DNA from: an uncultured Spirochaetales bacterium
GTDB taxonomy: Bacteria > Spirochaetota > Spirochaetia > Treponematales > JBGSOB01
Length of the DNA stretch: 64,000 nucleotides
Assembly: GCA_964399285.1 (NCBI GenBank)
Contig: CAYNQK010000002.1
Coordinates: forward strand, 512 to 64,511
Direction: 5' to 3'
The position numbers were made by a program, and so were the translations under genes. The notes under the pieces are model-generated. The model saw only the letters and a program-made list of their open reading frames with translations, did no database searches and was not told the DNA's origin. This document shows positions 1,508-43,233 of the stretch, piece by piece (the stretch's first letter is position 1; each line of letters starts with the position of its first letter).

Positions 1508-1579
1508 TGGGCGATATTGGATTTGAACCAATGACTTCTACCGTGTGAAGGTAGCACTCTCCCGCTGAGTTAATCGCCC
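1508..1579 (-). tRNA. tRNA-Val (anticodon CAC)
   Basis: Hand-folded 72-nt cloverleaf on the minus strand. Acceptor GGGCGAT/ATCGCCC, D stem ACTC/GAGT, anticodon stem CTACC/GGTAG with loop TTCACAC, T arm ATTGG-TTCAAAT-CCAAT, discriminator A. No CCA is encoded. Confidence 0.88.
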
Positions 1580-27878: not shown

Positions 27879-28948
27879 GCCGGGCCCAGCTCCTCGAATA
27901 TGGCCTTGAAACGATCCGCGTAGGAGTACTTCTCCGATCGCGCGTATCCCCCTCGGCAGATCGCGATCCGCGCGTCATCGTTATTGAGGTAGTACTTCGT
28001 CTGAGCGATGAGCTCGTCGATCGTCGCGAACAAGGCGATCTCCTTCCCCGGGACGAAGTAATCGTCGATCTCGAGGGCGAAATGGCTGAGCTGGAATCCG
28101 CCCGCGGCGGGTATCTCGAAATTGCGGGCTTTGATGGACTCGCGCCGTTTCTCGCTGAATACCGACGCATATATGTTCGACAATCCTTTCTTGATGCTTC
28201 TTCCCCAGGAACCGTACCGCCCAGCGTTCAGGCCGAACAGCGCCCGTAGGGCATCGATCGCGAGGAATCGCCTGAACGAGGGCAGGGAAGGAATAGAATT
28301 GGTGAGGTTCAGGTTGATCTTCGACGTATGGAATATTTTTTCCATCTGCGCGATGGTAAGGCGCCCGTTCTGCCAGCCGTAGCCGAAGCATTCCACTTTT
28401 ATTCCGGCTTTCTCGAGCTCGCGGACGATCCATTCGCGCGTCGCGTTCCTTCCGCCCACGAAACTGATGTCGTAAAGGTAATCCACCTTTTCGACGTCCA
28501 GCCCCGGCACGTATCGCGGGCTGGCCCATTGCGTCCGAACGACCCGGCATCCGAGCGCGCGATATTCATGCACCTTGTATTTATCCACCGTGATCGACGC
28601 CCCGAGGTGGGGAGCGATATGACGGGAGTAGCCCTCGAATCTCCATTGATCGTCGCAGAACCAATTGACGGCGAAGCACTTAGGCTTCAACGCGTCGAAA
28701 GTATCATTCGACACCTCGTTCCGCATGAGCTGGAAATACGCCAGGTCCGGCTTAGCGACGTCAACGGCTTCGATTATTTTACGCTGCAGGCCCCCGAGAT
28801 CCTCGGGGTACCCGTTATCTTCGAGCCAGAACGGAATGACGTCGGCGCCGGCGGCCACCATCGCCGGGACCATGATGAGTTTCTCACCGGAGTCGCCGCG
28901 CGCCGGGACGCCGTAATCGTACTTAAGGAGGCAGGCGAGGACCTTCAT
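27875..28948 (-). CDS. CgeB-family glycosyltransferase-like protein (Glyco_trans_1_2 / DUF3880 type)
   Basis: Start at the ATG at 28948 (ATGA overlap). The C-terminal FEIPAAGGFQLSHFALEIDDYFVPGKEIALFATIDELIAQTKYYLNNDDARIAI is typical of the CgeB-like family. Confidence 0.65.
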   Translation of the reverse strand: MKVLACLLKYDYGVPARGDSGEKLIMVPAMVAAGADVIPFWLEDNGYPEDLGGLQRKIIEAVDVAKPDLAYFQLMRNEVSNDTFDALKPKCFAVNWFCDDQWRFEGYSRHIAPHLGASITVDKYKVHEYRALGCRVVRTQWASPRYVPGLDVEKVDYLYDISFVGGRNATREWIVRELEKAGIKVECFGYGWQNGRLTIAQMEKIFHTSKINLNLTNSIPSLPSFRRFLAIDALRALFGLNAGRYGSWGRSIKKGLSNIYASVFSEKRRESIKARNFEIPAAGGFQLSHFALEIDDYFVPGKEIALFATIDELIAQTKYYLNNDDARIAICRGGYARSEKYSYADRFKAIFEELGPA

Positions 28949-29610
28949 GCCGCGTCGCCATCGAAGAACGCCGCGATGCCGGCCGGATCGTCGACGACCG
29001 ATACGCACCTCACGTCCGACACGCCAGTCCCGGGCTTGAATCCGAACCCGTACGTCACCGCCATGAAATCGATCCCGATCGATTGCGCGCTTTGGGCGTC
29101 AGAAAGAGTATCGCCGACGTAGATGACGCGATGCGGATCGCTTATCCCCATCTCCTTCATCGTGAGTCCGATGATGTCCTTCTTCCTGAGCTTGTTCTCG
29201 TTATCGGCGCCGTTTATCGACTCGCACAGGGCGCCGAAGCCGAAATGGTTCACGATCTCGACCGCGTAATCTGCCCGCTTGTAGGTGGCTATGCCGAGGC
29301 GCGATCCCGCCCTCTTGACGCTCCCCAGGGCCTCCATGATGCCCGCGTAAGGCTCCGCCTCTAGGAGATGCTCGCCTTTGTACCGTTTTCTGAAAATCTC
29401 GGCTGCCGCCTGCGCGTCCACCGCGTTCATGCCGTATTCCCTGGCGAATGACTCCTGTACCGGCGGGCCTATGAAGGTCATGAGCTTCTCCGGGCTCAGG
29501 GGAGGCAGGCGCATCTCCTCTATAGTATCCCTCACGGAAGCCGTGATGCCCGCGGTCGTGTCGAGGAGAGTCCCGTCAACGTCGAAAATGACGGAGTCGT
29601 ACTTCCTCAT
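28945..29610 (-). CDS. HAD-superfamily hydrolase (phosphoglycolate-phosphatase-like, subfamily IA)
   Basis: 221-aa ORF with motif I VIFDVDGTLLDT, motif II IATYK and motif IV YVGDTLSD. Confidence 0.8.
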   Translation of the reverse strand: MRKYDSVIFDVDGTLLDTTAGITASVRDTIEEMRLPPLSPEKLMTFIGPPVQESFAREYGMNAVDAQAAAEIFRKRYKGEHLLEAEPYAGIMEALGSVKRAGSRLGIATYKRADYAVEIVNHFGFGALCESINGADNENKLRKKDIIGLTMKEMGISDPHRVIYVGDTLSDAQSAQSIGIDFMAVTYGFGFKPGTGVSDVRCVSVVDDPAGIAAFFDGDAA

Positions 29611-31214
29611 GCGTTTCCTTTGCAGTAGGCGGAGGGAGTAATGAAATCCACCTTTATGCGGTCGCCGAGCCGCTGGAGCTCCGCCTTAACCGCGTCGTTC
29701 CGCTTCATCACGTCATCGTCGCAATACAGGTACTTTACGTAGTTCGAGCTGTAATCCGATCCTCCGCTGGAAGAATACCCGTCGAATCCCGCGACGGAAA
29801 CCCTGTCCTTTCCGACCTTGAGAAGGGCCTTGAGAAGCATCAGTGCCGGGTTGTCCCGCACGACTTTCTCCTCGCACATGAGGGACTTGAAATCGAGGAG
29901 ATAATCGATGCCTTCGCCCGCGTCGCCGATGTTGGACGTGCAAATGATTTTTTCCTTCCTCCCAGGCTCATGAATCCTATCGTAGAACTGGTTGTACCTC
30001 TTCGGATTCCCCATGAAGACGAAATCGACGTCGAATTCGTCGGGAACGAAATTTATGGAAAATACGAGAGGGCGCGCAGCCTTCAGGAATCGATCAATAT
30101 CATCCCGGTTCCTCTCGAGCGTCGCTCCCGGCGCGAGCACCAGGACTTCCCTACTGGCCACTTCCGTTCCGAGCCTCTCATAGGCGTCCCTGTCATCGAA
30201 GGAACGCTGCTGGAATTCCGCGGCGAGGCGCTCGATCAAGTCCTTCTTATACGCGAGGCGCTCCGGAACGGGGATCCTCTGGAGGATCGCGTTGATGGAC
30301 TTCACCGAGAAAGTCTTCCGCGAGATGAGGTCCTTGACGTAGTCCGGATGGCAATCGTTGAGGGCGGAAATGTAATGCTGGAGCGAATAACCCCAATACC
30401 GCTTCTCGTACTCCTTCATGATGTCCACGTCGATCGTCTCGAGCAGCTGGTCTATGTCGTAATGGCCGCCGTGAGCGCGGTTCATGTTCATGGCCAGGAG
30501 CTCGGTATTCGCGTTTCCGGCCCCCTTTCCCATACCGTACAGCGATCCGTCCAGCATGAGGACGCGGTTCGAGTCCGTTTTCGCGAGCTCAATGCAGTTT
30601 GAATAAGCGAGCTGAAAATTGTTGTGCGAATGGTACCCGATCATGGTTTCCGGGGACAGCGCCCCGTTCATCAGCTCGAAGAAGTGCATCATCTGTTCTT
30701 TATGCATGAGCCCGTACGTATCAACGACTGATACCGAGAACGGGTTTATCGATTCCAGCATTCCAAGCAAGGAGGCCATTTCCTCATCGGAGTAGCTCGT
30801 CACGGAGACCGGCTGCGCGAAGACGCGATATCCCCTGTCGCGGATTCCCGCGCAGAACTCCACGGCGGCCGTCATATCCTTCTTCTTGAAAATGACGCGT
30901 ATACCGTCGAAGATCGTCTCGGCGGCGGGCTGGACCCGCTCGATCGGACAGGTTCCGAAATCGATCATGCCGACGATCATCGAGTTTTTCTTGTCCACGT
31001 TCTTCATCACGGGATTGAAGGACGCGGGATCGGGCCTGATGCTGCGGTCGGGATCGTATTCCACGCGCGCGTCGATGAATCCGAGCTCAATCACGTCGAT
31101 GCCCGCCCTCGCGAGCCGCGATATCACGCTTTTAATGCTTCCGAGGCCGAAGTTCCAATCATTGACGAAACCGCCGTCGCGCAAAGTACAATCAAGGATT
31201 TTGATCGATTTCAT
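29607..31214 (-). CDS. DRE-TIM (HMGL-like) aldolase domain fused to a C-terminal domain of uncertain function (possibly DUF115/MptE-like)
   Basis: 535-aa ORF. The N terminus KILDCTLRDGGFVNDWNFG...IDVIELGF...HSHNNFQLAYSN is the pyruvate-carboxyltransferase/aldolase fold. The ~220-aa C-terminal part (VLVLAPGATL...VFSINFVPDEFDVDFVFMGNPKRY...VAGFDGY) is only tentatively assigned. Confidence 0.6.
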   Translation of the reverse strand: MKSIKILDCTLRDGGFVNDWNFGLGSIKSVISRLARAGIDVIELGFIDARVEYDPDRSIRPDPASFNPVMKNVDKKNSMIVGMIDFGTCPIERVQPAAETIFDGIRVIFKKKDMTAAVEFCAGIRDRGYRVFAQPVSVTSYSDEEMASLLGMLESINPFSVSVVDTYGLMHKEQMMHFFELMNGALSPETMIGYHSHNNFQLAYSNCIELAKTDSNRVLMLDGSLYGMGKGAGNANTELLAMNMNRAHGGHYDIDQLLETIDVDIMKEYEKRYWGYSLQHYISALNDCHPDYVKDLISRKTFSVKSINAILQRIPVPERLAYKKDLIERLAAEFQQRSFDDRDAYERLGTEVASREVLVLAPGATLERNRDDIDRFLKAARPLVFSINFVPDEFDVDFVFMGNPKRYNQFYDRIHEPGRKEKIICTSNIGDAGEGIDYLLDFKSLMCEEKVVRDNPALMLLKALLKVGKDRVSVAGFDGYSSSGGSDYSSNYVKYLYCDDDVMKRNDAVKAELQRLGDRIKVDFITPSAYCKGNA

Positions 31215-33010
31215 AGCCTTCCCTCCTTGTATTTGTTCGCGGAGTGCTCTTCCTCGGACAGGAAGGGATGCATCTCATCGAGCGGCGCCGATACCATCCT
31301 GCCGTCGGGGAGGAGCTTCGAGGCCGATTTCGGGGAGAACGGCTGAGCCTTGTCGACGAGCACCTCGCAAAGGACGGGCGTATCGTCCGCGAGCAGCCTC
31401 TCAGCGAGGCCGTCGGCCTCCGTCATATCCGCGACCCGCGCGTACGCGAGACCGTATGCCGTCGCCAATGCCTTGAAATCCGGGAATCCGAGCCCTGAAG
31501 CGGCGTCGATGCCGGCGTATCTTCCCATAAAGAAATTCCCCTGGGTCTGCCTGATAGAATGGTATCCTTCGTTATTGATCACGATGAGCTTGAGCGGAAG
31601 CCGGTTGCGCGCAACCGTGGCGAGCTCCTGTACGTTCATCTGGAGGCTTCCATCGCCCTCGATGCAGACGACCTTGCGCTCGCCGAGCGCCCTGCAGGCG
31701 CCGATAGCCGCCGGAAGGCCGTATCCCATGGAGGCGCAGCCGGAATTCGTGAAGATCCTCTGGCCCCGCTTAATCCGGGCTGTCTGGAACGGGATGACGC
31801 ATGCCGATCCGTTGGAGCACACGGTCGTCTGGCCTTCGGGGAGGTCTCCGAGGAAGCCATCGAAGAACGCGTAGGGATTCAATCGATCCGTTCTCGACGC
31901 CTCCGCCGCGGCAGGGTATTTACGGCTTATCTTCCTGCACCAATCGAGCCAGCCGGATCCGCTCCCGTACTCCTTCCGGTACCCGGCGGCGAGAACGGCC
32001 TTCATGAAAAGCCCGCAATCGGATATGACGGGCATGTCGACGCGGAAGGTCTTTTTCCGGGTCTCGGCCTCGTCTATGTCGACCATGACCTTGAAGGCGT
32101 TCGGCGCCACCTCGTCCCAGGCGTAGCCGATCTGCCGGAGATTCATCCTGCAACCGAGCACGAGAAGGAGGTCGCAGTCCTGGAATACGTAATTCCCTCC
32201 GCGCGTCCCGATCGTGCCGGGGCGTCCGGCGTAGAAAGGATCTTCGTCTTCCATGAGATCGTGCGAATTCCAGGCAGTCATCGCGGGGACATTCAAGGTC
32301 CTGGCGAATTCCGGAAAAAGCTCTGCGTTTCCCGACATCCTCACCCCGGAACCGCCGATGATCGCAGGCCGCTTCGAAGCGCGAAGACGCTCCAGGAAGG
32401 CGGCGACTTCGCTCGCGGACGGCGCCTTCGGTCCAGAAGGAACCGCTTCAGCGTCCGGGAGCGATGGCATGGCGTCGAGGTCGACCTGCGCCGCCTGGAC
32501 GTTGAGCGGAATGTCGATCCAGACGGGGCCGGGCCGGCCGGAACGCGCGATCGCCAGAGCGCGCTCGAGGCTCCTGCGGATTTCAAGGGGCTCCGTGACC
32601 ATCTCGGCCCGCTTCGTCATCGCCCGCACCGCGTCAACGATATTGAATTCCTGATCGCCGAGCTGACGCAGTCCCGATCCCGGCACGGAGGCGAGCGTGC
32701 ACTCGAATTTCACCTGTCCTGATATGACGAGCATCGGGATGAAGTCGAGCCAGGCCCCCAAAACCCCGGTCAGGGCGTTCGTGCCCCCCGGTCCCGTCGT
32801 GACGCAGACGGCTGGCATTCTGCCCGAGGCCTTGAAATACCCCTCGGCGGCTATGGCCGCCGCCTGCTCGTGATGGAAGTACGTGCACCGAAGCCGTTGA
32901 TGGCTACCGAAGGCGTCGTTGAGGTGCATGGCGCCGCCGCCCGTCACCGTGAAAATATCAGTGACGCCGTTCTCAACGAGAAAATCGGCGATGAAATCCG
33001 CGAGTCTCAT
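31211..33010 (-). CDS. Thiamine-diphosphate-dependent enzyme, acetolactate-synthase-like (YerE-like candidate)
   Basis: 599-aa ORF with a TPP_enzyme N domain (FTVTGGGAMHLNDA...VCVTTGPGGTNALTG), a central domain and a C-terminal TPP-binding GDGSLQMNVQEL...NNEGY motif. ATGA overlaps on both sides. Confidence 0.85.
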   Translation of the reverse strand: MRLADFIADFLVENGVTDIFTVTGGGAMHLNDAFGSHQRLRCTYFHHEQAAAIAAEGYFKASGRMPAVCVTTGPGGTNALTGVLGAWLDFIPMLVISGQVKFECTLASVPGSGLRQLGDQEFNIVDAVRAMTKRAEMVTEPLEIRRSLERALAIARSGRPGPVWIDIPLNVQAAQVDLDAMPSLPDAEAVPSGPKAPSASEVAAFLERLRASKRPAIIGGSGVRMSGNAELFPEFARTLNVPAMTAWNSHDLMEDEDPFYAGRPGTIGTRGGNYVFQDCDLLLVLGCRMNLRQIGYAWDEVAPNAFKVMVDIDEAETRKKTFRVDMPVISDCGLFMKAVLAAGYRKEYGSGSGWLDWCRKISRKYPAAAEASRTDRLNPYAFFDGFLGDLPEGQTTVCSNGSACVIPFQTARIKRGQRIFTNSGCASMGYGLPAAIGACRALGERKVVCIEGDGSLQMNVQELATVARNRLPLKLIVINNEGYHSIRQTQGNFFMGRYAGIDAASGLGFPDFKALATAYGLAYARVADMTEADGLAERLLADDTPVLCEVLVDKAQPFSPKSASKLLPDGRMVSAPLDEMHPFLSEEEHSANKYKEGRL

Positions 33011-34071
33011 TCTTTCTCCCGCGCAGCGACGCGTTCCGCGCCGTTCCCGCGCTCATCCTTGTGATAATCCCTCGTTCGCGCGATCGCCTCGGACAGGGAC
33101 CTATTTCTTATTTCAGGGAGTTCCGTCTCGATCTTCGAGATATCTGGCAGGTAATCCTGGTTCCTGTCCGTCGGCCTCGACTGCCCGAGGACTTCGACGG
33201 GAACCGCTCCGAACGCGTTCGACACCGCGCCGCCGAGCTCGGCGATGGAGACGGCTTCCCCGGAACCGACGTTGTACGCCTCTCCGGGCTTCCCGTCGAT
33301 CAAGAGAAACAACAGCGCCTTCGCCATATCCGCGGCGTACTGGTAGCTCCTCCTCGGCTTTCCGTCGCCGTTGATCCTGATCGCCTTGCCGTCGAGCCCG
33401 TCGCGGATGAAATTCCCGATGGCGAAATGCGCGTCGAGCGGCAAGTACGGGCCGACGAAGGCGAAGCAACGAGCGATGACGGCATCGCAGCCGTTCTTCT
33501 TAGCGGCGCATACGGTATAGAGTTCGGCGAGGCGCTTCGCGACGCCGTAAGCCTGCGCCGGATCTAGCGAAGACGGAGCGCCCTCGTAATCCTCGCAGAA
33601 TGCTCTTAAGCCCGTCGGCGGCTTCCCGTACACGGCGCCTGAGCTGATGAAGAGCGATCTCTCGGCGTTCACAGCGCAAACACGCCGCGCGCCATCCACG
33701 ATGGTGTCCATCATGAGGAGCGGCGCCTCGGCGTTGAGCGCCGCGCTCGCTTCCGTGGCGCCGTTCACGACGAGGTCCGCCTCTATTCCAGCGGGATCGA
33801 AAGTCCTGACGTCGCCCTTGATGAATTCTACGTCGCCGAGCGAGGCGATCTCGGGCCGCTTCCGCTTGAAGGCTTCGGGATCGCGGCTCAAGAGGGTCAA
33901 CCGCATTCCGAGCCGCGCTTCCCGATTGGCCCACAGCAAGGCCCCCGTGAGCCAAGAGCCGATGAAGCCCGTGCCCCCGGTCATGAAGACGCGCTTTCCG
34001 CGGAACGCGTCCGAGCGCCCTTCGAGGGAGGTTAAGATATCCTGGAAGTCCTCTCGCAGGATCCGGTTCAT
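33007..34071 (-). CDS. NAD(P)-dependent epimerase/dehydratase-family SDR (candidate sugar keto-reductase, YerF-like)
   Basis: Start at the ATG at 34071 (ATGA overlap). Rossmann motif VFMTGGTGFIGSWL and catalytic YGVAK (YxxxK). Confidence 0.75.
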   Translation of the reverse strand: MNRILREDFQDILTSLEGRSDAFRGKRVFMTGGTGFIGSWLTGALLWANREARLGMRLTLLSRDPEAFKRKRPEIASLGDVEFIKGDVRTFDPAGIEADLVVNGATEASAALNAEAPLLMMDTIVDGARRVCAVNAERSLFISSGAVYGKPPTGLRAFCEDYEGAPSSLDPAQAYGVAKRLAELYTVCAAKKNGCDAVIARCFAFVGPYLPLDAHFAIGNFIRDGLDGKAIRINGDGKPRRSYQYAADMAKALLFLLIDGKPGEAYNVGSGEAVSIAELGGAVSNAFGAVPVEVLGQSRPTDRNQDYLPDISKIETELPEIRNRSLSEAIARTRDYHKDERGNGAERVAAREKE

Positions 34072-35150
34072 TCCTTTTCTCCGGCCTCCGCGTACTCGCC
34101 GATCTGCCTCGCGCATACGCTCGCGGGAGGCTCTCCGGACAACCGCGCTTTTTCCCAAGCGACGCTCTTCTCGAGGGCGGTGGCGAGGTCCCATCGAGGC
34201 TTCCAGCCGATCCGCGACCTGATCTTCGAGCAATCGAGCTTGAGGTAATTCGCCTCGTGCGGGTGGGGTCCCTTATCGATCTCGTATTCCGCGTTTTCGC
34301 CCCAGAGGTCCTTGAGCCTCTGTACGATCCATCCGACGGGCCTCGCGTCCTCGTCGTTCGGTCCTACGTTCCACCCCTCGGCGCAGTCGTTGCTCCCGTA
34401 CAAGCGCTCCGCGAGCTCGATATACGCGGAGAGCGGCTCGAGGACGTGCTGCCAGGGGCGCGTCGACTCGGGATTCCTGATCCGGACCTTCTCGCCCTTT
34501 CCGAAGGCCCTGAGGCAATCGGGCACGAGGCGGTCCGGGGCCCAATCCCCTCCGCCGATCACGTTCCCCGCCCGGGCCGTCGCTATGGCGGCATGGTGGC
34601 TCTGCCCGTACTCCGCGACGTTGAAGAATGAATTGCGATAGGACGCGGCGACGATCTCGGCGCAGGCCTTGGACGCGGAATACGGATCGTATCCCCCGAA
34701 GGCCTCGTCCTCGCGGTACCCCCAGGGCCATTCCCTGTTTTCATAGACCTTATCCGTCGTGATCACGAGAATCGACCGCAGCTCGGGGCAGGAACGCGCG
34801 GCTTCGAGGACGTTCGCCGTGCCGATGACGTTCGTCTGGTACGTGCCGAGCGGATCCTTGTAGGATTCGCGCACTATGGGCTGCGCGGCGAGATGCATGA
34901 GGACGTCCGGCTTGAAGGCCTTCATCGAGGTCCTGAGCGCGTTCAAGTCGCGGATGTCGCCGATCGCATGTTCCATGCGGCGGTCCAGGCCGAGCAGGAC
35001 GAAAAGACTCGGATCCGTCGCGGGACCGAGGGAATATCCGCGGATCTCCGCCCCCATGGAGAGCAGCCATTCGCAGAGCCAGCTCCCCTTGAATCCGGTA
35101 TGCCCCGTCACGAAGACGCGCTTTCGGCGCCAGAACGCCGCGCCTTTCAT
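34068..35150 (-). CDS. rfbG: CDP-glucose 4,6-dehydratase
   Basis: Start at the ATG at 35150 (ATGA overlap). [27 protein letters not shown] and YSASKACAE are hallmarks of RfbG/DdhB. It is adjacent to rfbF. Confidence 0.9.
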
Positions 35151-35923
35151 TTCCAAGCCCTCCAGGGCGCCTTGCCCTCGGCCCAGAGCCGTTCGAGCTC
35201 CTGTTTGTCGCGGAGCGTGTCCATGGGCCGCCAGAATCCCTCGTGCCGGTAGGCGCCGAGTTGCCCGTCGCGCGCGAGGCCCTCGAGCGGGCCGCGCTCC
35301 CACACCGTCATGTCGCCGTCATTGATATAGTCGAAGACTCCGGGTTCGCAGACGAAGAATCCCGCATTGATCCAAGCGCCCTCGCCCGCGGGCTTCTCCT
35401 TAAAGGACACGACCGCGCTGTTCGCCGCCATGTCGATCGCCCCGAATCGTCCATGCGGCTGGACGGCGGTCAGGGTGGCGAGCCGCTTCGATTCCTCATG
35501 GAACCTGAGGAGGGCCGGGATATCGACGTCTCCGACCCCGTCCCCGTACGTGAGCATGAAAGGTCCGCCGTCGACGTATTCGCGGATCCTCGCGATCCTG
35601 CCGCCCGTCATCGTATCGAGCCCCGTGTCTACGAGGGTGACGCGCCACGGATCCGCGTGCTTGTGATGGACCTCCATCTCGTTATTGGCCATGTCGAAGG
35701 TTACGTCCGCCATGTGCAGGAAGTAGTTGGCGAAGTATTCCTTGATGACGTAGCCCTTATAACCGCAACAGATCACGAAGTCGTCGAATCCATGGCTCGA
35801 GTAAATCTTCATGATGTGCCAGAGGATCGGTTTACCGCCGATCTCCACCATCGGCTTGGGCCGGAGTTCAGTCTCTTCGGACAAGCGCGTACCGTATCCG
35901 CCGGCGAGAATAACAACTTTCAT
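35147..35923 (-). CDS. rfbF: Glucose-1-phosphate cytidylyltransferase
   Basis: 258-aa [67 protein letters not shown] matches RfbF/DdhA throughout. Confidence 0.92.
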
Positions 35924-37224
35924 AGAATCCTCCTATGCGGATCGGTTTCAAATATCTGTTCTACCGACTTTTTCAGAAGGGTGAAAAGGATCATAAAAGT
36001 CATGATTGCCAAATTGATCGGAACGTTGATGCTAAGGCCGCCGATTATTATTACGTAATCTTTGGGTATGAATAATAAACCATAACATATCGAGTAAATC
36101 ATAATCACTCTTTTTCCTAGATCACCTGTATCATAGATGAACATGAAAAACGGTATAAGGAAGCATATTAATTTGTAATCGTAGGACACATAAGGGAAAA
36201 GCACGAGGATGCTTACGAGGACTTGGGCAATTTCGAATGTTCGCAAGTCTTTCTTCACAAAAATAACGATGCATATGGCCAGAAAGAGAACAATCACTAT
36301 AGCCGCGTACGGTTTGGACATCGCAAGCTCTATCGCCCTTGAAGGCACGTAGCCCGGAGCCGATTTTCCTAGAATCCCGAGATAGGAAAGAACGATAAGC
36401 TTGATTACGCCGAACAATGTAGGGCTGTACTGGATTCCGTTGACATCGAACGACCTACCAAAAAATTTTCTGAACTCATGGAGCATGGAAAGAATATTAT
36501 TGATGACTCCTCCCTTGAAAGCGAGGAGTGGCAGGATGAAAAACGCGACGCATAATCCTAAGGCGAGTAATATTAATTTTACTTTTTTGTCTTTCACCAG
36601 GATAAGGATGAAAATGCCTGGGTAGATCTTCATTGATATTGCTATACTCAGGCAGATCACGCTAAGGATATGCCGATCCGTATAATAAAAATAGAAAAAA
36701 GCACCGACAAACAGGAATAAGTAAATCTCGATATTTCCCCTGTCGATGGAAAAAAGCAAGGGGTAAGCACAGCAGGCGATAACGAGAATGGAGAGGGCCT
36801 TTTCTTTATTGGCGAAGCATAACGACCCTATAAATAACGCGTAAACAACAAGGAAAATCCCTAAAAAAAGCGATAATGACAAATATTTACTCGGGATGAC
36901 GGAAAAAAACCAAAATAATAAATTCGGCAATGGCAGATAGTTGCTTTGAAAGAAATGGTTTGAGTTGTAAGGGGACCGGTCACCAGAAATCCCGTACATA
37001 TTTGAAAAGTCCCGAAAACAATTATCCGGCCGGAAAAGGAACGTGCTAAAAGGATACCCGAGGCCGAAGTACGAAGCCAACGCATAATGGAATGCCACTG
37101 CGCAAAAAAAACCGCAGAACACTATGATGGCGGTGACATTGAGCGCCTCTGCCCTGAGCATGGGTATTCCGAGAAGCCTTCGCACATCCGCTCTTTGGTT
37201 CCAGAGCGTGTTCTGACCTTCCAT
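35920..37224 (-). CDS. AT-rich polytopic membrane protein, putative repeat-unit polymerase (Wzy-like) or GT-C glycosyltransferase
   Basis: 434-aa ORF with about 10-12 TM segments and a Phe/Ile/Leu/Tyr-rich composition. It sits between rfbH and rfbF with TAA-ATG abutment upstream and an ATGA overlap downstream. I recognise no soluble domain. Confidence 0.5.
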
Positions 37225-38565
37225 TTAGCTTTTCCATCCCATCTTCAGGAACTCGCCGATCGCTGAAAGCGCGTATACAATGCGCGCCTCATCCAATCCC
37301 GGGAACGCCCCCAAAAAGAAGGTATCGTTCATAGCGATGTCCGTGTTCGGGAGGCCGCCGGGCGCCATGCGGTGCGCGATGCCCTCGTACGCCGGCTGCC
37401 TCAGGATGTTCCCCGCGAAAAGGTTCCTCGTCTCCACGCGATGCGCGTTCAGGTAGTCCGTGAGCTCGGTCCTCGTGAACCCGGCATCGGGCTTGACGGT
37501 GACGGGATACGCGAACCAGGAGGGGTCGGATTTCGCCGTCGCTCGGGGCAGTATGAAATACCGCTCGTACTGCCCGAAACCTTCGGTCCATCGCTTGAAG
37601 TTCTCCTTGCGCCGCGCGATGAATTCCGGAAGCTTCTTCATCTGCTCCACTCCGATCGCGGCCTGGATGTCCGTGACCTTGAGGTTGTACCCGATGTGGG
37701 AGTACACGTACTTGTGGTCGTAGCCCGCGGGGAGCGTCCCGTACCGTCCGGTGAAGCGCTTGCCGCAGGTATTGCTCTCCCCGCCCGAGCAGTAGCAATC
37801 GCGTCCCCAGTCGCGGATTGACCGGGCCGCTCGCGCGAGAATCTCGTCGTTCGTGAAGACGCAGCCTCCCTCGCCCATGGTGATGTGGTGAGCGGGATAG
37901 AAGGAACAGGTGGCGATGTGCCCGAAAGTGCCGACCTTCCTGCCCGCGTACGTCGATCCCAGGGCGTCGCAGCAATCTTCCACGAGCCAGAGCCCCTTCT
38001 CCTCGACGACCTCCATGACCGCGTCGAGGTCGTAGGGATTCCCGAGGGTATGCGCGAGGAAGACGGCCTTCGTCTTCGGCCCGATCGCCTTCCTGAGCTG
38101 TTCGACGTTGACGTTGTACGTGCCGATATCGATATCGACGAAAACCGGGACCATGCCGTTCTGGATGACGGGATTGACCGTGGTCGGGAAGCCGGCCGCC
38201 ACGGAAATCACCTCATCGCCCGGCTTCAAGGCCTTTTCGCCGAGGAGCGGGGAGGTCAAGGCGCTGAAAGCGACGAGATTCGCGGAGGACCCCGAGTTCA
38301 CGAGGAAGGCGAACTCGCTCTCGACGAAGTCCGCGAACGCGCCCTCGAATTCCTCGGAGAACCTGCCCGAGGTGAGCCAGAAATCCAGGCACGCGTCCAC
38401 GCCGGCCTGAAGCTCCTTCTCGTCGAAGACCCTTCCCGCGTAACGGACCATGTCCTTTTCCGCGTCGAAGGCCTTCACCGGGAATTTGACCCGATAATAT
38501 TCCGCCACGAGCGAGGCGATTTCTTCCCTGAGCCGTTTCTCATCCTTCACGTTCGTCACTCCCAT
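37225..38565 (-). CDS. rfbH: CDP-6-deoxy-L-threo-D-glycero-4-hexulose-3-dehydrase (E1, PMP-dependent)
   Basis: 446-aa DegT/DnrJ-fold protein. The E1-specific FYPAHHITMGEGG has His in place of the PLP lysine. The Cys-rich DWGRDCYCSGGESNTCGKRF segment is the Fe-S site. Confidence 0.9.
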   Translation of the reverse strand: MGVTNVKDEKRLREEIASLVAEYYRVKFPVKAFDAEKDMVRYAGRVFDEKELQAGVDACLDFWLTSGRFSEEFEGAFADFVESEFAFLVNSGSSANLVAFSALTSPLLGEKALKPGDEVISVAAGFPTTVNPVIQNGMVPVFVDIDIGTYNVNVEQLRKAIGPKTKAVFLAHTLGNPYDLDAVMEVVEEKGLWLVEDCCDALGSTYAGRKVGTFGHIATCSFYPAHHITMGEGGCVFTNDEILARAARSIRDWGRDCYCSGGESNTCGKRFTGRYGTLPAGYDHKYVYSHIGYNLKVTDIQAAIGVEQMKKLPEFIARRKENFKRWTEGFGQYERYFILPRATAKSDPSWFAYPVTVKPDAGFTRTELTDYLNAHRVETRNLFAGNILRQPAYEGIAHRMAPGGLPNTDIAMNDTFFLGAFPGLDEARIVYALSAIGEFLKMGWKS

Positions 38566-39281
38566 TCGTCGATTCTCACGTTTTCCGGCTTCACGCCGCA
38601 GGCGACCAGTCCGCCCTTGAACGCCTTGATCATGGCGGGGGGGCCGGAGAGAAAATAAAGCGGATCTTCCAAGTCGGCGGTCTCGTCCCGTATCGAACGG
38701 ATATCCAGCATGCCGCCGCGCATCCCGGCGCTTCTCTCGGGATCCTCCACGAAGAGGCTATATGTGAAATCCTTGCAAGAAGAGCCGCATCCGCGGATTT
38801 CGTCCAAGAAGAGCAGCTGATCTTCCTTCCTGGCTCCGTAATACAGCCTCACGGGAGCGGCGGCGCTTCCGAGCCCGGCGATCTCCTCAATGAACGGAAC
38901 GTAGGGCGAAACCCCCGTCCCGCCCGCTACGAGAACCACGCCCCGTCCGGCGTTCAAATCGATATGGAATTCCCCGTAAGGCAGTTTCAGCCATACGGTT
39001 TTCCCGACATCGAGCTCGGCCTCCATCCTGCGCGTATACGCGCCCTTCACGCTGTATACGATCGCGATCTCGTCGGCGCCGTAGCGCGACGCGATAGAGA
39101 AAACGCGCGATTCGGGCCAGAAGCCCCCGGCCGGATCGTAGTCCTCGAGGGTCATATGCAGGAATTGGCCGGACTTGAACCGCGGCACGCGCCCCTCGGG
39201 CTTGAGGCCGATTTCATACACTCCCTCGCCGTGGGGATCGATGCGGGACACCGCCGCTCGAAGCTTAACGGGATTGGCCAT
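38556..39281 (-). CDS. FNR-like FAD/NAD(P)H oxidoreductase (E3-like reductase lacking the ferredoxin domain)
   Basis: Start at the ATG at 39281. FAD motif RVFSIAS and NAD motif VLVAGGTGVSP. No N-terminal CxxxxCxxC 2Fe-2S domain. It lies directly upstream of rfbH with a 10-nt overlap. Confidence 0.7.
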   Translation of the reverse strand: MANPVKLRAAVSRIDPHGEGVYEIGLKPEGRVPRFKSGQFLHMTLEDYDPAGGFWPESRVFSIASRYGADEIAIVYSVKGAYTRRMEAELDVGKTVWLKLPYGEFHIDLNAGRGVVLVAGGTGVSPYVPFIEEIAGLGSAAAPVRLYYGARKEDQLLFLDEIRGCGSSCKDFTYSLFVEDPERSAGMRGGMLDIRSIRDETADLEDPLYFLSGPPAMIKAFKGGLVACGVKPENVRIDEWE

Positions 39282-40995
39282 CGCGCCATCCTTTCCCACC
39301 GAGCGCGCCCATCGCCTCATCGAACACGATCGCGCGGTCGAGGCTGGTTCCTTGATACGGAATACTCTTCATCAATTCGCCCTTGAGCAGGATCTCGCCC
39401 CCGGTCTCGAGCGCGATTCCCGCACCGCAGAGAGTCGCCATGGTAGGGGCCACGTCGACCAAGGATACGGCCTTCGCGCCAATGATCGCTGAACCCGGAG
39501 CTATGCCTTCTCCGAGGATGAACAAAGGAACATACCTCACGATATTCTGCCCGATGCGAATTTGAGAGCTCCGGTAAACCGGCTTCTCTATGAACGCCGG
39601 ATGATCCCCGTAAATGCAGACGATCGCGTCAGGAGCGATCTTCCTCAGCTCTTCGACGAAAACCCCGAGGCAGCCGTCGACGTAGGCCAGTGACCCGAAA
39701 TACGAGTCGACGAACGCGTCTCCCGTCCGTATCCCTCCCGCCGCCCGGACCTCGGGAGGGAGGAGATCGAAGGGATTGTGCGATGACATCGTGATGATAT
39801 AAGCGAGGAAGGGCCCCGTCGAAGCCCGCATCTTCTCGAGGGCGAAGGAGAAGGTGTCCTTATCCTCGGAACCCCACTTATACGTGCCCCCGCCGATATC
39901 CTTCTTGTCGTAGAACGCGTCGAATCCCATTCGCCTGTATACGCGATTCCTCGAGTAGAAAGTGCCGCTATTGCCGTGAAAAGCCATCGTCGAATAGCCC
40001 GCGCGCTTCAGCGCCGCGGCCAGGGAATTCGGATAATCGTGGTTCGGCGGCATCGGCCCGTCGGGAACGAATGAATTTATGACGCAGATTTCGCTATTGA
40101 GGGTTCCCGCTCCGGTATTGACGACCATCACCGGCGCGTAGAAGCCCTCATCGGCCGCGGAATCGAGGAACGGCGTCACGGGCTTGCCGCCTACCCGCGA
40201 CCCTCTCAGGCCCGAATCGAGCGACTCGACCTGGATGAACACCAAGCTCCTGGGCTTCGCGGCCGATTCCGTCTCATACCGGTCCAGGCCGGCATAATAA
40301 TCCTTTTGGCCGGGATTGAAGAGGACTCCGTGGAAGAACTGTATGAAAAGATTGGCGGCCGCGCCGTATTTGAGTACCGAGGAGTAATAATAGGGATCCC
40401 CGTACCTCAGCAAATGGCATATCGACACTCGCTTGGTCGCGTTATACGCCTCGGCGCTCAATAAGCCCGCGCATGACGCGATGACTACCGCCCGTCGAGC
40501 TACGATCGCCGGCTTCCATCGCAATCCATGGAACCACTCCTTGATTCGGCCCGACAGGAGGAACGCCGCGACGGACAAAGGAACCTCGAGGAGATGGGAG
40601 AATATCCTCCGAGTCGCCTCTCCGGTCCACTTATACATCCCCGACGCTATCATTCCTTCGAGGAAAAACGTTTTCACGATGTCGACGGTTATGAAATCCG
40701 CGAAGTGGGCGAAATAGAGGGCCGAAGCCACGCTCCAAACGGACCTCGCTCCTTGAAGAGCGAGAAGGATCCATGCGGGGCATTTTTTCATGAGCAGCAC
40801 GCGCGCGCACAACACCGCGCCGAGGGCGGTGTACGCGACCTTATACAGGACGTTCCTCGGATTCAAGAAGCCCGTGAACCAAAAGCCCGTCATGGAGATG
40901 TTAAAGATTATGAGGAGCAGATAGACTCCGGCGATCGTTAAGCCGAAGACCGGCGGCCCGTGCGGCCCGGCCTTTTCCGCGCCCTTCGCTTCCAT
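39265..40995 (-). CDS. LTA-synthase/sulfatase-family membrane transferase (phosphoglycerol or phosphoethanolamine transferase-like)
   Basis: Five or so N-terminal TMs precede an alkaline-phosphatase-superfamily domain (LVFIQVESLDSGL, MAFHGNSGTFYSRNRVY, ITMSSHNPF, IYGDH). I prefer the ATG at 40995, 1 nt past the fcl stop. The ATG at 41061 is an alternative. Confidence 0.75.
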   Translation of the reverse strand: MEAKGAEKAGPHGPPVFGLTIAGVYLLLIIFNISMTGFWFTGFLNPRNVLYKVAYTALGAVLCARVLLMKKCPAWILLALQGARSVWSVASALYFAHFADFITVDIVKTFFLEGMIASGMYKWTGEATRRIFSHLLEVPLSVAAFLLSGRIKEWFHGLRWKPAIVARRAVVIASCAGLLSAEAYNATKRVSICHLLRYGDPYYYSSVLKYGAAANLFIQFFHGVLFNPGQKDYYAGLDRYETESAAKPRSLVFIQVESLDSGLRGSRVGGKPVTPFLDSAADEGFYAPVMVVNTGAGTLNSEICVINSFVPDGPMPPNHDYPNSLAAALKRAGYSTMAFHGNSGTFYSRNRVYRRMGFDAFYDKKDIGGGTYKWGSEDKDTFSFALEKMRASTGPFLAYIITMSSHNPFDLLPPEVRAAGGIRTGDAFVDSYFGSLAYVDGCLGVFVEELRKIAPDAIVCIYGDHPAFIEKPVYRSSQIRIGQNIVRYVPLFILGEGIAPGSAIIGAKAVSLVDVAPTMATLCGAGIALETGGEILLKGELMKSIPYQGTSLDRAIVFDEAMGALGGKGWRDGQSR

Positions 40996-40996
40996 C

Positions 40997-41950
40997 TTAT
41001 GCCCGCCCGCCGCTCCCGAACCTCTCGAGGAAATCCGCATACGCGATCGGAATCCCCTCATCGAGCCCGACGAGCGGCTTCCATCCGAGAGCGGCGAGCC
41101 TCGATGAGTCCATGAGCTTCCGGGGCGTACCGTTCGGCTTGCTCGCGTCCCAGACGATTCTTCCCGTGAAGCCGATCACCTTGGCGACTTTCGCCGCCAG
41201 CTCCGCTATGGTGAGTTCGCTCTGCGACCCCACGTTGATGAAATCGCCCGTATCCGCGTAGGAAGCCTTCTCCATGAGAAAAACGATCGCGCGGGCGAGG
41301 TCGTCGGAAAAGAGGAATTCCCGGTAGGGGGTTCCGTCCCCCCAGAGAGTCGCGTCGGTCCCCGCGGCCTTGGCCTCGTGGATTTTGCGGATCATCGCCG
41401 GCAGGACGTGGCTCCCCGTCGGGTGATAGTTGTCGCCGGGGCCGTACATGTTGGTGGGCATGGCGCTTAAGAATTCGGCCCCGTACTGCTCGTGGTAATG
41501 CTTGCAGAGCCTGAGCGCCGCGATCTTCGCCACCGCGTACGCCTCGTTCGTCGGCTCGAGCGGTCCCGTGAGGAGGTACTCCTCCTTGAGCGGTTGGGGC
41601 GCCATCTTCGGATATATGCACGAGGAACCGAGGTTGAGGAGCTTCTTCACGCCGTACCGGTACGCGGAATTGATGACGTTGGATGCTATCATGATGTTGT
41701 CGTAGAGGAACTCGGCGGGGAAGGAGGAATTCGCCGCGATGCCGCCCACCTTGGCCGCGGCGAGAATGACGTACTCGGGGCGCTCGCTCTCGAAGAAGGC
41801 CTCGGCGTCGGCCTGGCGGCGGAGGTCGAGCTCCTTGATGCCCCTCGTCACGATGTTCGCGTAGCCCGCGGCGCGCAACGCCCGGAAGATGGCCGAGCCG
41901 ACGAGGCCGTCGTGCCCGGCGAGGTATATCTTCGAATTCCTTTCTATCAC
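40997..41950 (-). CDS. fcl: GDP-L-fucose synthase (GDP-4-keto-6-deoxymannose 3,5-epimerase/4-reductase)
   Basis: 317-aa ORF with a GTG start and GAGGGG 4 nt upstream. IYLAGHDGLVGSAI, LGSSCIYP and YAVAKIA are typical Fcl/WcaG motifs. It is adjacent to gmd. Confidence 0.92.
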   Translation of the reverse strand: MIERNSKIYLAGHDGLVGSAIFRALRAAGYANIVTRGIKELDLRRQADAEAFFESERPEYVILAAAKVGGIAANSSFPAEFLYDNIMIASNVINSAYRYGVKKLLNLGSSCIYPKMAPQPLKEEYLLTGPLEPTNEAYAVAKIAALRLCKHYHEQYGAEFLSAMPTNMYGPGDNYHPTGSHVLPAMIRKIHEAKAAGTDATLWGDGTPYREFLFSDDLARAIVFLMEKASYADTGDFINVGSQSELTIAELAAKVAKVIGFTGRIVWDASKPNGTPRKLMDSSRLAALGWKPLVGLDEGIPIAYADFLERFGSGGRA

Positions 41951-41957
41951 GTTCCCC

Positions 41958-43043: not shown

Positions 43044-43233
43044 AATCCGACGCCTCTCTGGATCATGCCTCTCTCCCATACACCGCCGCGTTGGGGCGGA
43101 TTCTCTATATTCGTCGGATTCTCCTATAAAGCTTTCTATTTCTTTATATCAGATGTATTGCGCATAAGTCTTTCTCCGGGCTCGCCATATTCCGTGCAAT
43201 CTTCGTATTCCCATGCATCGAAGGCAAGCCCAG

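Follow-up and report, generated by a model that had tools for sequence, protein, structure and literature searches.

A probable operon for a CDP-linked 4-C-branched 3,6-dideoxyhexose with an uncharacterised aldolase–phosphatase donor module in an uncultured spirochete

Main finding

The product of a glycan operon in the 64-kb window (the whole stretch of 64,000 nucleotides that was analysed) is, with somewhat better than even probability, a 3,6-dideoxyhexose that is CDP-activated and bears a long, hydroxylated branch at C-4; this sugar would be built into a Wzx/Wzy-type surface polysaccharide also containing fucose. The most likely source of its branch-donor acid is an uncharacterised aldolase together with a phosphatase. 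The general scheme, in which an aldolase, a ThDP enzyme and a reductase act in turn to give a branched sugar, is already published and is not new in principle; the enzyme set of the window represents a version of it that is new and occurs widely, and the novelty lies in the donor module.

Organisation of the operon

All the pathway genes lie on the minus strand, where the original prediction had placed them (Table 1), inside a Wzx/Wzy glycan operon of about 24 kb and about 20 genes (19225-43079). Nine junctions in a row, the first being GT87/rfbF and the last GT10-GT2/Wzx, show ATGA start/stop overlaps. Among them, the overlaps said to join the extended SDR with the 599-aa ThDP enzyme, and the DRE-TIM aldolase fusion with the HAD phosphatase, were read directly; the SDR gene is coupled in this way at both ends, and the HAD gene is also coupled to the gene of a Glyco_trans_1_2-type glycosyltransferase, which had no match in the NCBIfam search and is a candidate for transferring the branched sugar. 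Since the HMM E-values go down to 1e-203, chance is excluded for the gene identities. At the head of the operon the TIGR01472 match reaches 605.9 bits (cut-off 415), and the GDPFucSynFcl match, at 445 bits, is under its cut-off of 500.

The GT87-like gene is inserted between rfbH and rfbF and has a GC content of 42%, against 61-64% in the adjoining genes. The operon was compared with 83 tabulated related loci, which are 81 non-redundant loci after removal of two duplicates. The GT87-like gene is homologous to that of one of them, L002 (31-34% identity), and related GT-C genes directly adjoin the ThDP or aldolase gene in at least 9 related loci.

Table 1. Positions of the pathway genes and their neighbours in the window
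Feature	Position	Strand	Match
Rest of operon: GT10-like/GT2 fusion, Wzx-like flippase, GT2, GT4, Wzy_C polymerase/ligase-like, GT4, Wzz-like	19225..27878	-	
Glyco_trans_1_2-type glycosyltransferase	27875..28948	-	Pfam annotation (JGI gene call)
HAD-IA phosphatase (phosphoglycolate-phosphatase-like)	28945..29610	-	HAD_2, E 6e-32
Aldolase fusion, 535 aa	29607..31214	-	HMGL-like on residues 4-255
Aldolase C-terminal Rossmann-like domain, residues 335-535	29607..30212	-	conserved, no Pfam match
Aldolase N-terminal DRE-TIM (HMGL-like) metallolyase barrel, about residues 1-330	30225..31214	-	PF00682, E 3.9e-22
ThDP-dependent carboligase, JanthE-like (YerE-like) group, 599 aa	31211..33010	-	three ThDP domains, E 1e-29 to 1e-37
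Extended SDR, 354 aa	33007..34071	-	PF01370, E 2.7e-34
rfbG/ddhB, CDP-glucose 4,6-dehydratase	34068..35150	-	TIGR02622, 478.8 bits, cut-off 278
rfbF/ddhA, glucose-1-phosphate cytidylyltransferase	35147..35923	-	TIGR02623, 433.5 bits, cut-off 300
GT87-like (GT-C type) polytopic membrane glycosyltransferase	35920..37224	-	PF09594, E 2.4e-11
rfbH/ddhC (E1), CDP-6-deoxy-D-xylo-4-hexulose 3-dehydrase	37225..38565	-	NF011936, 673.8 bits, cut-off 423
FNR-like flavin reductase	38556..39320	-	PF00175 NAD_binding_1
Head of operon: gmd, fcl (GDP-L-fucose synthesis), LtaS/sulfatase-family membrane transferase	39265..43079	-	TIGR01472, PF00884

Synthesis of the acceptor sugar

In the first step of the proposed pathway, RfbF, RfbG and RfbH with the FNR-like reductase would convert glucose-1-phosphate into CDP-4-keto-3,6-dideoxy-D-glucose, and the chemistry of this step is that of the established Asc/Ddh/Rfb pathway. 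The three Rfb enzymes, which had been recognised from hallmark motifs, all pass their curated equivalog cut-offs, and both E1-specific marks of RfbH are in place: FYPAHH from residue 222 is the His-for-Lys substitution, and the Cys cluster C-x-C-x7-C starts at residue 257. The FNR-like reductase gene is indeed beside rfbH, but the protein has no [2Fe-2S] ferredoxin domain, and the GT87-like gene splits rfbH from rfbF. The alignment with BenC-type reductases is limited to their residues 102-325 (the FAD/NAD part), and the true start may alternatively be Met14 at 39281. The classical E3 (AscD), as in the yersiniose A system, carries the [2Fe-2S] domain that the window reductase lacks. The reductase is the probable E3-like electron donor for E1; of the 83 tabulated loci, only 2 have a homologue of it next to rfbH.

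The ThDP-dependent enzyme

The ThDP enzyme reaches none of the equivalog cut-offs for AHAS/ALS (its highest score is 321 bits, where the cut-off is 738), and its best solved relative is JanthE (8RPH), with 370 bits and 33% identity over 580 residues. The original prediction had called for comparison with YerE and with true AHAS/ALS enzymes; by sequence the enzyme is no closer to PpYerE (5AHK; 242 bits, 28% identity), the only YerE-type structure available, than to E. coli AHAS I (244 bits, 29% identity). The NJ tree of the enzyme was built with a single AHAS outgroup. JanthE, from Janthinobacterium sp. HH01, is a YerE-like carboligase that takes long alpha-keto acids, including 4-hydroxy-2-oxovalerate, as well as ketone acceptors, and its physiological substrates and pathway are unknown (PMC12188165). 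The C-terminal extension FSPK...DG..VS.PL is common to both enzymes, and the Lys within that of JanthE is a residue mutated in its engineering (PMC12188165); the ThDP motif is CDG in JanthE and the canonical GDG in the window enzyme.

A housekeeping role for the enzyme as acetolactate synthase, or one as phosphonopyruvate/sulfopyruvate decarboxylase, with a merely accidental place in the island, is extremely unlikely. Acetolactate synthase models do head its NCBIfam list and the JGI annotation agrees, but the scores are as low as given above, a PEP mutase, an AHAS small subunit and ilv genes are all missing from the operon, the gene is ATGA-coupled to those of the SDR and the aldolase, and a protein of 599 aa with three domains is not Ppd-like.

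The extended SDR

The extended SDR remains under every NCBIfam cut-off, and in the PDB it comes closest to UXS and to SDRs of the dTDP-glucose dehydratase type. It is proposed as the branch ketoreductase, that is, the counterpart of YerF/ErwF. An extended SDR adjoins the ThDP enzyme in most related loci, where the SDRs differ and are non-orthologous. It could also be a C-4 ketoreductase giving an unbranched paratose- or abequose-like sugar, with the ThDP enzyme, aldolase and HAD phosphatase making a separate substituent, e.g., an acyloin or a decarboxylated aldehyde attached later. Such a role would suit an SDR that belongs to no curated family and resembles sugar-nucleotide-modifying SDRs generally, in an operon without a separate RfbS/RfbJ-type reductase, but it is improbable, because E1/RfbH orthologues occur only in ThDP-positive loci (28 of 40 full-length ones, against 0 of 5 full-length ThDP-negative ones), the nearest characterised relative of the ThDP family is a ketone-accepting carboligase, and the non-orthologous SDRs adjoin the ThDP enzyme as yerF and erwF do. 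The original prediction of a yersiniose-like 4-C-branched 3,6-dideoxyhexose is supported as to branching, as far as sequence and gene context go, by the failed AHAS cut-offs, the match to JanthE and the distribution of RfbH, but the sugar itself is probably not yersiniose and probably has a longer branch.

The aldolase and its phosphatase

Among PDB structures the aldolase barrel matches 3DXI best, which is the N-terminal domain of Bacteroides BVU_2661, and DmpG/BphI-type aldolases come next. D8, R12, E43, H195 and H197 do not vary within the family, and the equivalent of the catalytic His21 of DmpG is Phe. The protein scores far under the NCBIfam aldolase cut-offs. It reaches 47 bits to DmpG-type enzymes and has no DmpG communication domain. 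Because the catalytic His is replaced and the scores are so low, pyruvate-aldolase chemistry is an assumption taken from the nearest family. In the C-terminal domain, for which the Pfam search returned nothing even at E<=10, the AF2 model has a pLDDT of 87.9, and 31 positions are invariant in an alignment of 34 sequences and 41 in one of 13; its only structural match is SteA, which is weak and not significant (Foldseek E 3.8e-3, TMq 0.47; HMM E 0.21). The uncharacterised aldolase family, of about 531 aa, was found in 484 species genomes; cultured carriers include Murimonas intestini DSM 26524, Sporofaciens musculi, Trichlorobacter lovleyi and Treponema sp. Marseille-Q4523. The HAD phosphatase has the DVDGT motif, stays under all NCBIfam cut-offs, and is proposed to dephosphorylate the aldolase product.

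The donor module in related loci

The ThDP enzyme is present with the aldolase in 68 of the 81 non-redundant loci; in most of these 68, the aldolase, the accessory gene or genes and the ThDP gene are contiguous in either gene order, and an accessory gene often lies between the other two. Next to the aldolase lies a HAD phosphatase of one or another of three non-orthologous kinds (24, 11 and 7 loci, the orthologues of the window HAD being the 24), or alternatively an AroB-related sugar-phosphate phospholyase (TIGR04425, 422.5 bits, cut-off 400) with a short SDR (21-23 loci); in about 17 loci neither a phosphatase nor an AroB-like gene is nearby. Such phosphatase or phospholyase partners beside the aldolase are evidence for a phosphorylated intermediate. 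In all seven long ThDP-negative loci a KdsB-like (203.5 bits, cut-off 193) or PseF/NeuA-like cytidylyltransferase stands beside the aldolase and HAD genes, and one of the seven has a polysialyltransferase-like domain. No ulosonic-acid cytidylyltransferase was found anywhere in the 64-kb window, and therefore the acid has no activation route there except use by the ThDP enzyme. We infer that the aldolase and the phosphatase make a 3-deoxy-2-ulosonic acid, which would be used in the window as the branch donor.

Plain yersiniose-type chemistry, in which the ThDP enzyme takes pyruvate to form a C2 acetyl branch that the SDR reduces, while the aldolase and HAD make an unrelated ulosonic acid or modify the same glycan elsewhere, is unlikely. 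Pyruvate is the substrate of YerE (PMC9306805) and is also accepted by JanthE, and in other loci the aldolase and HAD clearly feed a CMP-activation route and not a ThDP enzyme; against this stand the missing cytidylyltransferase, the contiguity in the ThDP-positive loci, and the fact that ErwE, which also has an aldolase in its cluster, rejects pyruvate (PMC9306805). The original prediction saw no place for the aldolase and HAD in the yersiniose route, and this is true, as YerE needs neither; that they supply a different acyl donor is supported by the tight linkage in related loci and by the match to the published erwiniose/caryophyllose/gastriose scheme (PMC9306805).

It is highly unlikely that the aldolase acts after branching or on the CDP-keto-sugar, with pyruvate enolate adding to the C-4 ketone or acetyl branch, the ThDP enzyme then decarboxylating and the C-terminal domain holding CDP. 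The conserved Rossmann-like domain with its SteA-type (possibly nucleotide-binding) fold would agree with this, and an alternative order of steps was considered by Steitz et al., who rejected it for ErwE (PMC9306805). However, the SteA match lacks significance, the phosphatase and phospholyase partners would be left without a role, and the aldolase–HAD pair occurs without rfbH or ThDP but with CMP-transferases, which fits a free ulosonic-acid product.

Proposed pathway and comparison with known systems

With the ulosonic acid as branch donor, the DRE-TIM aldolase would condense pyruvate and an aldehyde, most likely a phosphorylated aldose, into a 3-deoxy-2-ulosonate phosphate, from which the HAD phosphatase would free the alpha-keto sugar acid. 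The JanthE/YerE-like ThDP enzyme would then decarboxylate the acid and join the acyl-anion equivalent so formed to the CDP-sugar at its C-4 ketone, a step suggested by the family of the enzyme, by its gene context and by the scheme published for erwiniose-type sugars. The branch carbonyl would be reduced by the coupled SDR, and the sugar would be installed by the downstream glycosyltransferase or the inserted GT87-like GT-C enzyme. Since the donor would be made by an aldolase, as in the erwiniose-type scheme, the product is probably a longer-branched sugar and not yersiniose with its C2 branch; the identity of the aldehyde would determine the branch length.

In the scheme of Steitz et al. (2022), a hydroxylated alpha-keto acid formed by an aldolase is joined to CDP-4-keto-3,6-dideoxyglucose through a YerE-like ThDP enzyme; after the action of a reductase, the finished sugar is erwiniose, caryophyllose or gastriose (PMC9306805). 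The erwiniose pathway of Pectobacterium atrosepticum consists of ErwE (ThDP enzyme), ErwF (reductase), ErwI (aldolase) and ErwJ (acetaldehyde dehydrogenase) (PMC9306805). The window shares with it the CDP-4-keto-3,6-dideoxyglucose genes, an adjoining DRE-TIM/HMGL-superfamily aldolase, a YerE-like ThDP enzyme and an NAD(P)H reductase, as well as, by proposal, an aldolase-made gamma-hydroxy alpha-keto acid in place of pyruvate as donor. However, ErwI is of BphI/DmpG type and paired with an acylating acetaldehyde dehydrogenase, whereas the window aldolase is of the separate ~531-aa family, with a novel C-terminal domain, a HAD phosphatase partner and no dehydrogenase partner; these differences imply a different aldehyde, probably phosphorylated and longer. 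Yersiniose A of Yersinia pseudotuberculosis (DdhA-D/AscA-D, YerE, YerF) has the same acceptor sugar pathway and the same ThDP-dependent C-4 branching followed by reduction, but there YerE acts on pyruvate and no aldolase or phosphatase is needed.

Caryophyllose, gastriose, 'ropiose' and aurantose (MMAR_2331/2332, MygI/MyGE, RhopE, SpirE) have in common a 3,6-dideoxyhexose whose 4-C branch is long and polyhydroxylated, as proposed here; a phosphatase or AroB-like partner is not described for them in the cited literature, and MMAR_2331 is an HpcH/citrate-lyase-type aldolase, unlike the DRE-TIM aldolase of the window. Aurantose is a C-branched sugar reported from Spirochaeta aurantia (PMC12247030), a spirochete and hence of the same phylum as the window host. 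The host is an uncultured spirochete from an anaerobic digester.

The donor module also resembles the KDO, KDN and sialic acid routes (KdsA/KdsC, or a NeuB-type synthase with a HAD enzyme, then a CMP-transferase) in the proposed condensation of a three-carbon unit with a phospho-aldose and the subsequent HAD dephosphorylation, and the sister loci share with these routes the KdsB-like or NeuA/PseF-like cytidylyltransferases and the polysialyltransferase-like domain. The known synthases of these routes, however, take PEP and differ in fold and family, whereas the window aldolase, as a DRE-TIM metallolyase, would take pyruvate; its acid is not CMP-activated and would instead be consumed by the ThDP enzyme.

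Organization of the glycan operon

The dideoxy sugar genes lie in a single long glycan operon at about 19.2-43.1 kb, which comprises about 20 genes, all on the minus strand (see the table below). The GC content of this island is 42-64%, against 67.5% in the rest of the window, and the gene calls are concordant across identical JGI contigs, the ORF list and the HMM scans. The identical sequence is present on JGI metagenome contigs and in runs whose label is anaerobic digester metagenome, and the UvrC encoded beside the island has 59-62% identity to MAG proteins of Treponema, Rectinemataceae, Treponemataceae and Spirochaetaceae, which makes the host an uncultured spirochete.

Features of the glycan operon in transcription order, followed by two features outside it
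Order	Feature	Position	Strand	Curated model (score; cut-off)
1	gmd		-	TIGR01472 (606 bits; 415)
2	fcl		-	
3	LtaS/sulfatase-family membrane protein	39265-40995	-	
4	FNR-like reductase	38556-39320	-	
5	rfbH		-	NF011936 (673.8 bits; 423)
6	GT87-like membrane protein	35920-37224	-	
7	rfbF		-	TIGR02623 (433.5 bits; 300)
8	rfbG		-	TIGR02622 (478.8 bits; 278)
9	Extended SDR	33007-34071	-	
10	Three-domain ThDP enzyme	31211-33010	-	
11	HMGL-like aldolase, 535 aa	29607-31214	-	
12	HAD phosphatase	28945-29610	-	
	GT10-GT2 fusion protein, 624 aa	26004-27878	-	
Tail	Glycosyltransferases, Wzx-like flippase, Wzy_C protein, Wzz-like protein		-	
	TPR/repeat protein, 1110 aa	46721-50053	+	
	tRNA-Val (CAC)	1508-1579	-	

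RfbH, the 3-dehydrase (E1) of the pathway, carries FYPAHH at residue 222, with His in place of Lys, and the [2Fe-2S] Cys motif C-x-C-x7-C at residue 257; ATGA overlaps occur at nine successive junctions, from GT87/rfbF through GT10-GT2/Wzx. The original prediction had described rfbF, rfbG and rfbH together with an FNR-like reductase, an SDR, a ThDP enzyme, an aldolase and a HAD phosphatase, and the equivalog scores, the RfbH motifs and the overlaps therefore confirm this description in every particular.

The reductase is a 254-aa FAD/NAD module alone, aligned to residues 102-325 of BenC, so that the combination of plant-type [2Fe-2S], FAD and NAD(P)H domains expected of E3, the reductase partner of RfbH, was not found in it. 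That is to say, it differs from AscD-type E3 in having no [2Fe-2S] ferredoxin domain, and neither a ferredoxin domain nor a ferredoxin gene was found elsewhere in the operon. Homologues of this reductase accompany rfbH in only two of the 83 tabulated related loci, and therefore most such clusters encode no dedicated E1 reductase. As for the last step of the common dideoxyhexose routes, no gene of the window matched the models of terminal C-4 reductases or epimerases (RfbS/RfbJ/RfbE type); the extended SDR, which is the sole candidate C-4 reductase, scores below every NCBIfam cut-off.

The rfb genes are interrupted by a GT-C-type, GT87-like gene of 42% GC, compared with 61-62% for rfbH and rfbF and about 67% for the genome. 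It abuts the upstream gene (TAA-ATG) and overlaps the downstream gene (ATGA), and it looks like a recent insertion; homologous GT-C genes directly adjoin the ThDP or aldolase gene in at least nine related loci. Between fcl and the reductase gene, a polytopic protein of the LtaS/sulfatase family is encoded, which may add phosphoglycerol or a similar substituent, and no homologue of it was seen in the 83 tabulated loci. The operon that holds gmd and fcl also encodes a fusion of a GT10-like domain (fucosyltransferase family) and a GT2 domain, whose gene has, like the adjoining Wzx gene, a low GC content of 52%.

The ThDP enzyme

The ThDP enzyme (599 aa) consists of PF02776, PF00205 and PF02775, and the motifs GDGSLQMN...NNEGY and HHEQ can be seen in its translation, so that it has the GDG...NN motif and the catalytic Glu of such enzymes. 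Its top NCBIfam models are acetolactate synthases, all of them far below their cut-offs (best 320.9 bits against 738). Among all PDB sequences it is most similar to JanthE (8RPH; 370 bits, E 2e-109, 33% identity); the scores of E. coli acetohydroxyacid synthase (AHAS) I (6LPI; 29% identity) and PpYerE (5AHK; 28%) are 244 and 242 bits. JanthE is a YerE-like enzyme that joins ketones to alpha-keto acids, 2-oxovalerate and 4-hydroxy-2-oxovalerate among them (PMC12188165, PMC12247030). The alignment to JanthE runs through the C-terminal FSPK...DG..VS.PL segment, which is absent from AHAS and PpYerE, and in a neighbour-joining tree with a single AHAS outgroup the window family forms one clade, with JanthE as its sister. 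Of the two YerE-like enzymes, JanthE scores clearly above AHAS I, and PpYerE about the same as AHAS. Given this score and a tree with one AHAS outgroup, the sequence is placed beside one characterised YerE-like carboligase, which does not prove membership of the YerE clade.

The same matches could be read as a housekeeping AHAS, or the protein as a phosphonopyruvate decarboxylase, and both readings were rejected because of the curated cut-offs, the genes around it and its domain architecture. Neither an equivalog score nor a small subunit or ilv context of AHAS was found; the neighbours are the SDR and the aldolase, and the gene is translationally coupled in the same operon as the CDP-4-keto-3,6-dideoxyglucose genes. 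The family comprises thousands of proteins, with identities above 50% in Treponema, Lachnospiraceae and Desulfobacterales. Its phylogeny does not track the type of accessory module, and the tree is therefore unusable for inferring the donor.

The aldolase and the published donor scheme

Yersiniose, erwiniose, caryophyllose and aurantose are examples of branched higher-carbon sugars, which bacteria display on their surfaces as rare antigenic determinants and whose ThDP enzymes are wanted as biocatalysts for chiral tertiary alcohols. In Pectobacterium atrosepticum, the BphI-like aldolase ErwI and the acetaldehyde dehydrogenase ErwJ make 4-hydroxy-2-oxopentanoate, which is used by ErwE as the donor instead of pyruvate, and reduction by ErwF gives erwiniose (PMC9306805). 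Analogous clusters account for caryophyllose (the aldolase MMAR_2331 and MMAR_2332), gastriose and a Rhodopseudomonas sugar (PMC9306805). In Spirochaeta aurantia, the presumed enzyme for the C-branched sugar aurantose is SpirE (2025 review, PMC12247030); the literature on aurantose/spirochaetose and on TIGR04425 yielded nothing usable. The gene set of Steitz et al. 2022, namely an aldolase, a ThDP enzyme and a reductase clustered with the keto-sugar genes, is present in the window. The proposal that the additional genes provide another acyl donor therefore agrees with an accepted scheme (PMC9306805) and is not new in itself. What is new is a distinct and widespread module, putatively donor-generating, in which a third, uncharacterised type of aldolase appears to have been recruited to the scheme.

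The aldolase family is conserved over its full length of about 531 aa and is named "aldolase catalytic domain-containing protein" at NCBI. A scan of GTDB species-representative genomes matched 505 stretches, 484 of which encode a relative, and among the hosts are Smithella, Geobacter, Treponema, Lachnospiraceae, Bacteroidales, Fusobacterium and Melainabacteria. The barrel retains the metal/enolate residues of DRE-TIM enzymes (D8, R12, E43, H195 and H197), which are invariant and aligned to the DmpG motifs. The reading as an ordinary enzyme of the DmpG/BphI/ErwI type was rejected: the protein reaches only 77.9 bits against TIGR03217 (cut-off 286), it has RDGGF opposite the RDGSH of DmpG, so that Phe occupies the place of the catalytic His21, and there is no match to the communication domain PF07836. 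Furthermore, no acylating dehydrogenase partner was found in the window operon, and the different C-terminal domain also counts against it.

Among known structures, the N-terminal domain of Bacteroides BVU_2661 (3DXI) comes closest to the aldolase. Conservation is also strong in the C-terminal 200 residues, which are modelled as a Rossmann-like fold (pLDDT 88) and for which Pfam gave nothing at E<=10 and the profile search of the PDB only SteA (E 0.21). SteA was also the best Foldseek match of this domain (E 3.8e-3, not convincing), and the matches of the full-length protein were dominated by the TIM barrel. A suspected likeness of the C-terminal motifs to DUF115/GT42 (MptE-like) proteins was not supported: when compared by hhalign with a neighbouring family that is truly MptE-like (PF01973, E 1.2e-12), the domain reached a probability of 3.4%, and only the first strand and a GxGPS-like motif were aligned.

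Partners of the aldolase in related loci

Eighty related genomic loci, together with further loci from metagenomes, were fetched and their ORFs classified; 81 non-redundant loci were analysed, and the counts of accessory genes are drawn from 83 tabulated loci, including two duplicates. A JanthE-like ThDP enzyme occurs in 68 of the 81, nearly always contiguous with the aldolase. Of the 40 full-length ThDP-positive loci, 28 have an RfbH orthologue no more than 10 kb away, and of the five full-length ThDP-negative ones none has.

The remaining partners alternate. The HAD phosphatase of the window type adjoins the aldolase in 24 loci, a second phosphatase of HAD-IA type in 11 (mostly Treponema) and one of HAD-IIA type in seven. 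In the locus L002 (13475-15180) and about 20 others, the HAD gene is replaced by an AroB-related phospholyase and a 221-aa SDR; the former stands beside the aldolase in 21 loci, the latter in 23, and the AroB-related gene is assigned by TIGR04425 as a "sugar phosphate phospholyase (cyclizing)" (422.5 bits; cut-off 400). The two alternatives almost never occur together in one locus, and about 17 related loci have neither nearby.

In all seven long ThDP-negative loci (L048, L053, L068, L074, L075, L080 and L082), a cytidylyltransferase stands directly beside the aldolase and HAD genes, as also in L040 and L047. The cytidylyltransferases of ThDP-negative loci are KdsB-like (203.5 bits; cut-off 193) or PseF/NeuA-like, and the hosts are Firmicutes, Fusobacterium and Melainabacteria. 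A fusion of a GT2 with a polysialyltransferase-like domain is additionally encoded in L053, and an MptE-like/DUF115 protein in L074 and L082. Neither KdsA nor NeuB genes were seen in these loci, which may represent a non-canonical ulosonic-acid pathway. A CMP-ulosonate cytidylyltransferase was searched for throughout the 64-kb window and not found, which fits use of the acid by the ThDP enzyme there.

In 32 loci (L002, L027, L032 and L033 among them), the ThDP/aldolase cassette is accompanied by a PgfS/ArnC-like polyprenyl-phosphate glycosyltransferase (GT2), often joined by GtrA-like and GT-C genes, which suggests that the branched sugar is often delivered by a lipid-linked, Gtr-like route. 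The window, however, has a GT-C gene without a GT2 of that kind or GtrA; it was searched for these two, for the AroB-like gene and for the short SDR, and none was found.

Proposed pathway and its implications

RfbF, RfbG, RfbH and the FNR-like reductase would form CDP-4-keto-3,6-dideoxyglucose, and the operon very probably makes this keto-sugar. The aldolase and the HAD phosphatase would supply an alpha-keto sugar acid, which the ThDP enzyme would decarboxylate and ligate to C-4 of the CDP-keto-sugar; branching at C-4 by this putative carboligase is probable, with less assurance than the first step. That the donor is derived from the aldolase rather than from pyruvate appears somewhat favoured by the gene context, and a phosphorylated aldose as the acceptor of the aldolase is a plausible choice at slightly under even chance. 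The coupled SDR would then reduce the branch carbonyl, and a transferase would add the sugar to a Wzx/Wzy polysaccharide that contains fucose, as gmd, fcl and the GT10-like domain of the operon suggest. The branched dideoxy sugar of the original prediction is supported: the feature is real, and the pathway is probably of the acyl-branched-sugar type with a distinct, putative donor module.

From the alternating partners, we infer that the aldolase and phosphatase constitute a module that converts pyruvate and a phosphorylated aldose into a 3-deoxy-2-ulosonic acid in free form, that the AroB-like enzyme and SDR would be another route of phosphate removal, possibly leaving an omega-deoxy end, and that the acid is CMP-activated in some bacteria and passed to the ThDP enzyme in most. 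The same alternation (phosphatase, AroB-like phospholyase, CMP-transferase) gives a testable hypothesis, in which the aldolase may be an entry point to ulosonic acids, and the donor module may be a new route to these acids as well.

A wider reading, in which the family makes 3-deoxy-2-ulosonic acid phosphates with two uses, a new sugar and a wide spread, is offered tentatively, as its joint truth is rather doubtful. The pyruvate-dependent aldolase would be a third route beside the PEP-dependent synthases of KdsA type and NeuB type, and its product would be freed by HAD or reworked by the AroB-like phospholyase and SDR. The acid would then either receive CMP, like sialic acid or KDO, or pass, in the window, to the JanthE-like ThDP enzyme, which would put a polyhydroxyalkyl chain on CDP-4-keto-3,6-dideoxyglucose and so form an undescribed higher-carbon branched sugar. 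Gut Lachnospiraceae, Bacteroidales, Treponema and syntrophs would commonly carry sugars of this kind.

The cassette occurs in hundreds of anaerobe species, among them cultured gut Lachnospiraceae, Treponema, Geobacter/Trichlorobacter and Bacteroidales. Cultured carriers of the aldolase/ThDP pair are Murimonas intestini DSM 26524, Sporofaciens musculi WCA-9-b2, Maccoyibacter intestinihominis, Geobacter sp. AOG1, Trichlorobacter lovleyi and Treponema sp. Marseille-Q4523. If confirmed, the pathway would lead one to expect new monosaccharides in bacteria of the gut and of digesters and provide new donor-generating enzymes for ThDP biocatalysis; annotation would also be improved, because the genes are now labelled acetolactate synthase and 4-hydroxy-2-oxovalerate aldolase.

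Other features of the window

Away from the island, tRNA-Val is the sole Rfam/ARAGORN match in the window. The 1110-aa protein has an N-terminal TPR region followed by PPPYQQP-like repeats rich in proline and glutamine and a long acidic tail, and the AT skew peaks over its gene (0.27 at 48-50 kb).
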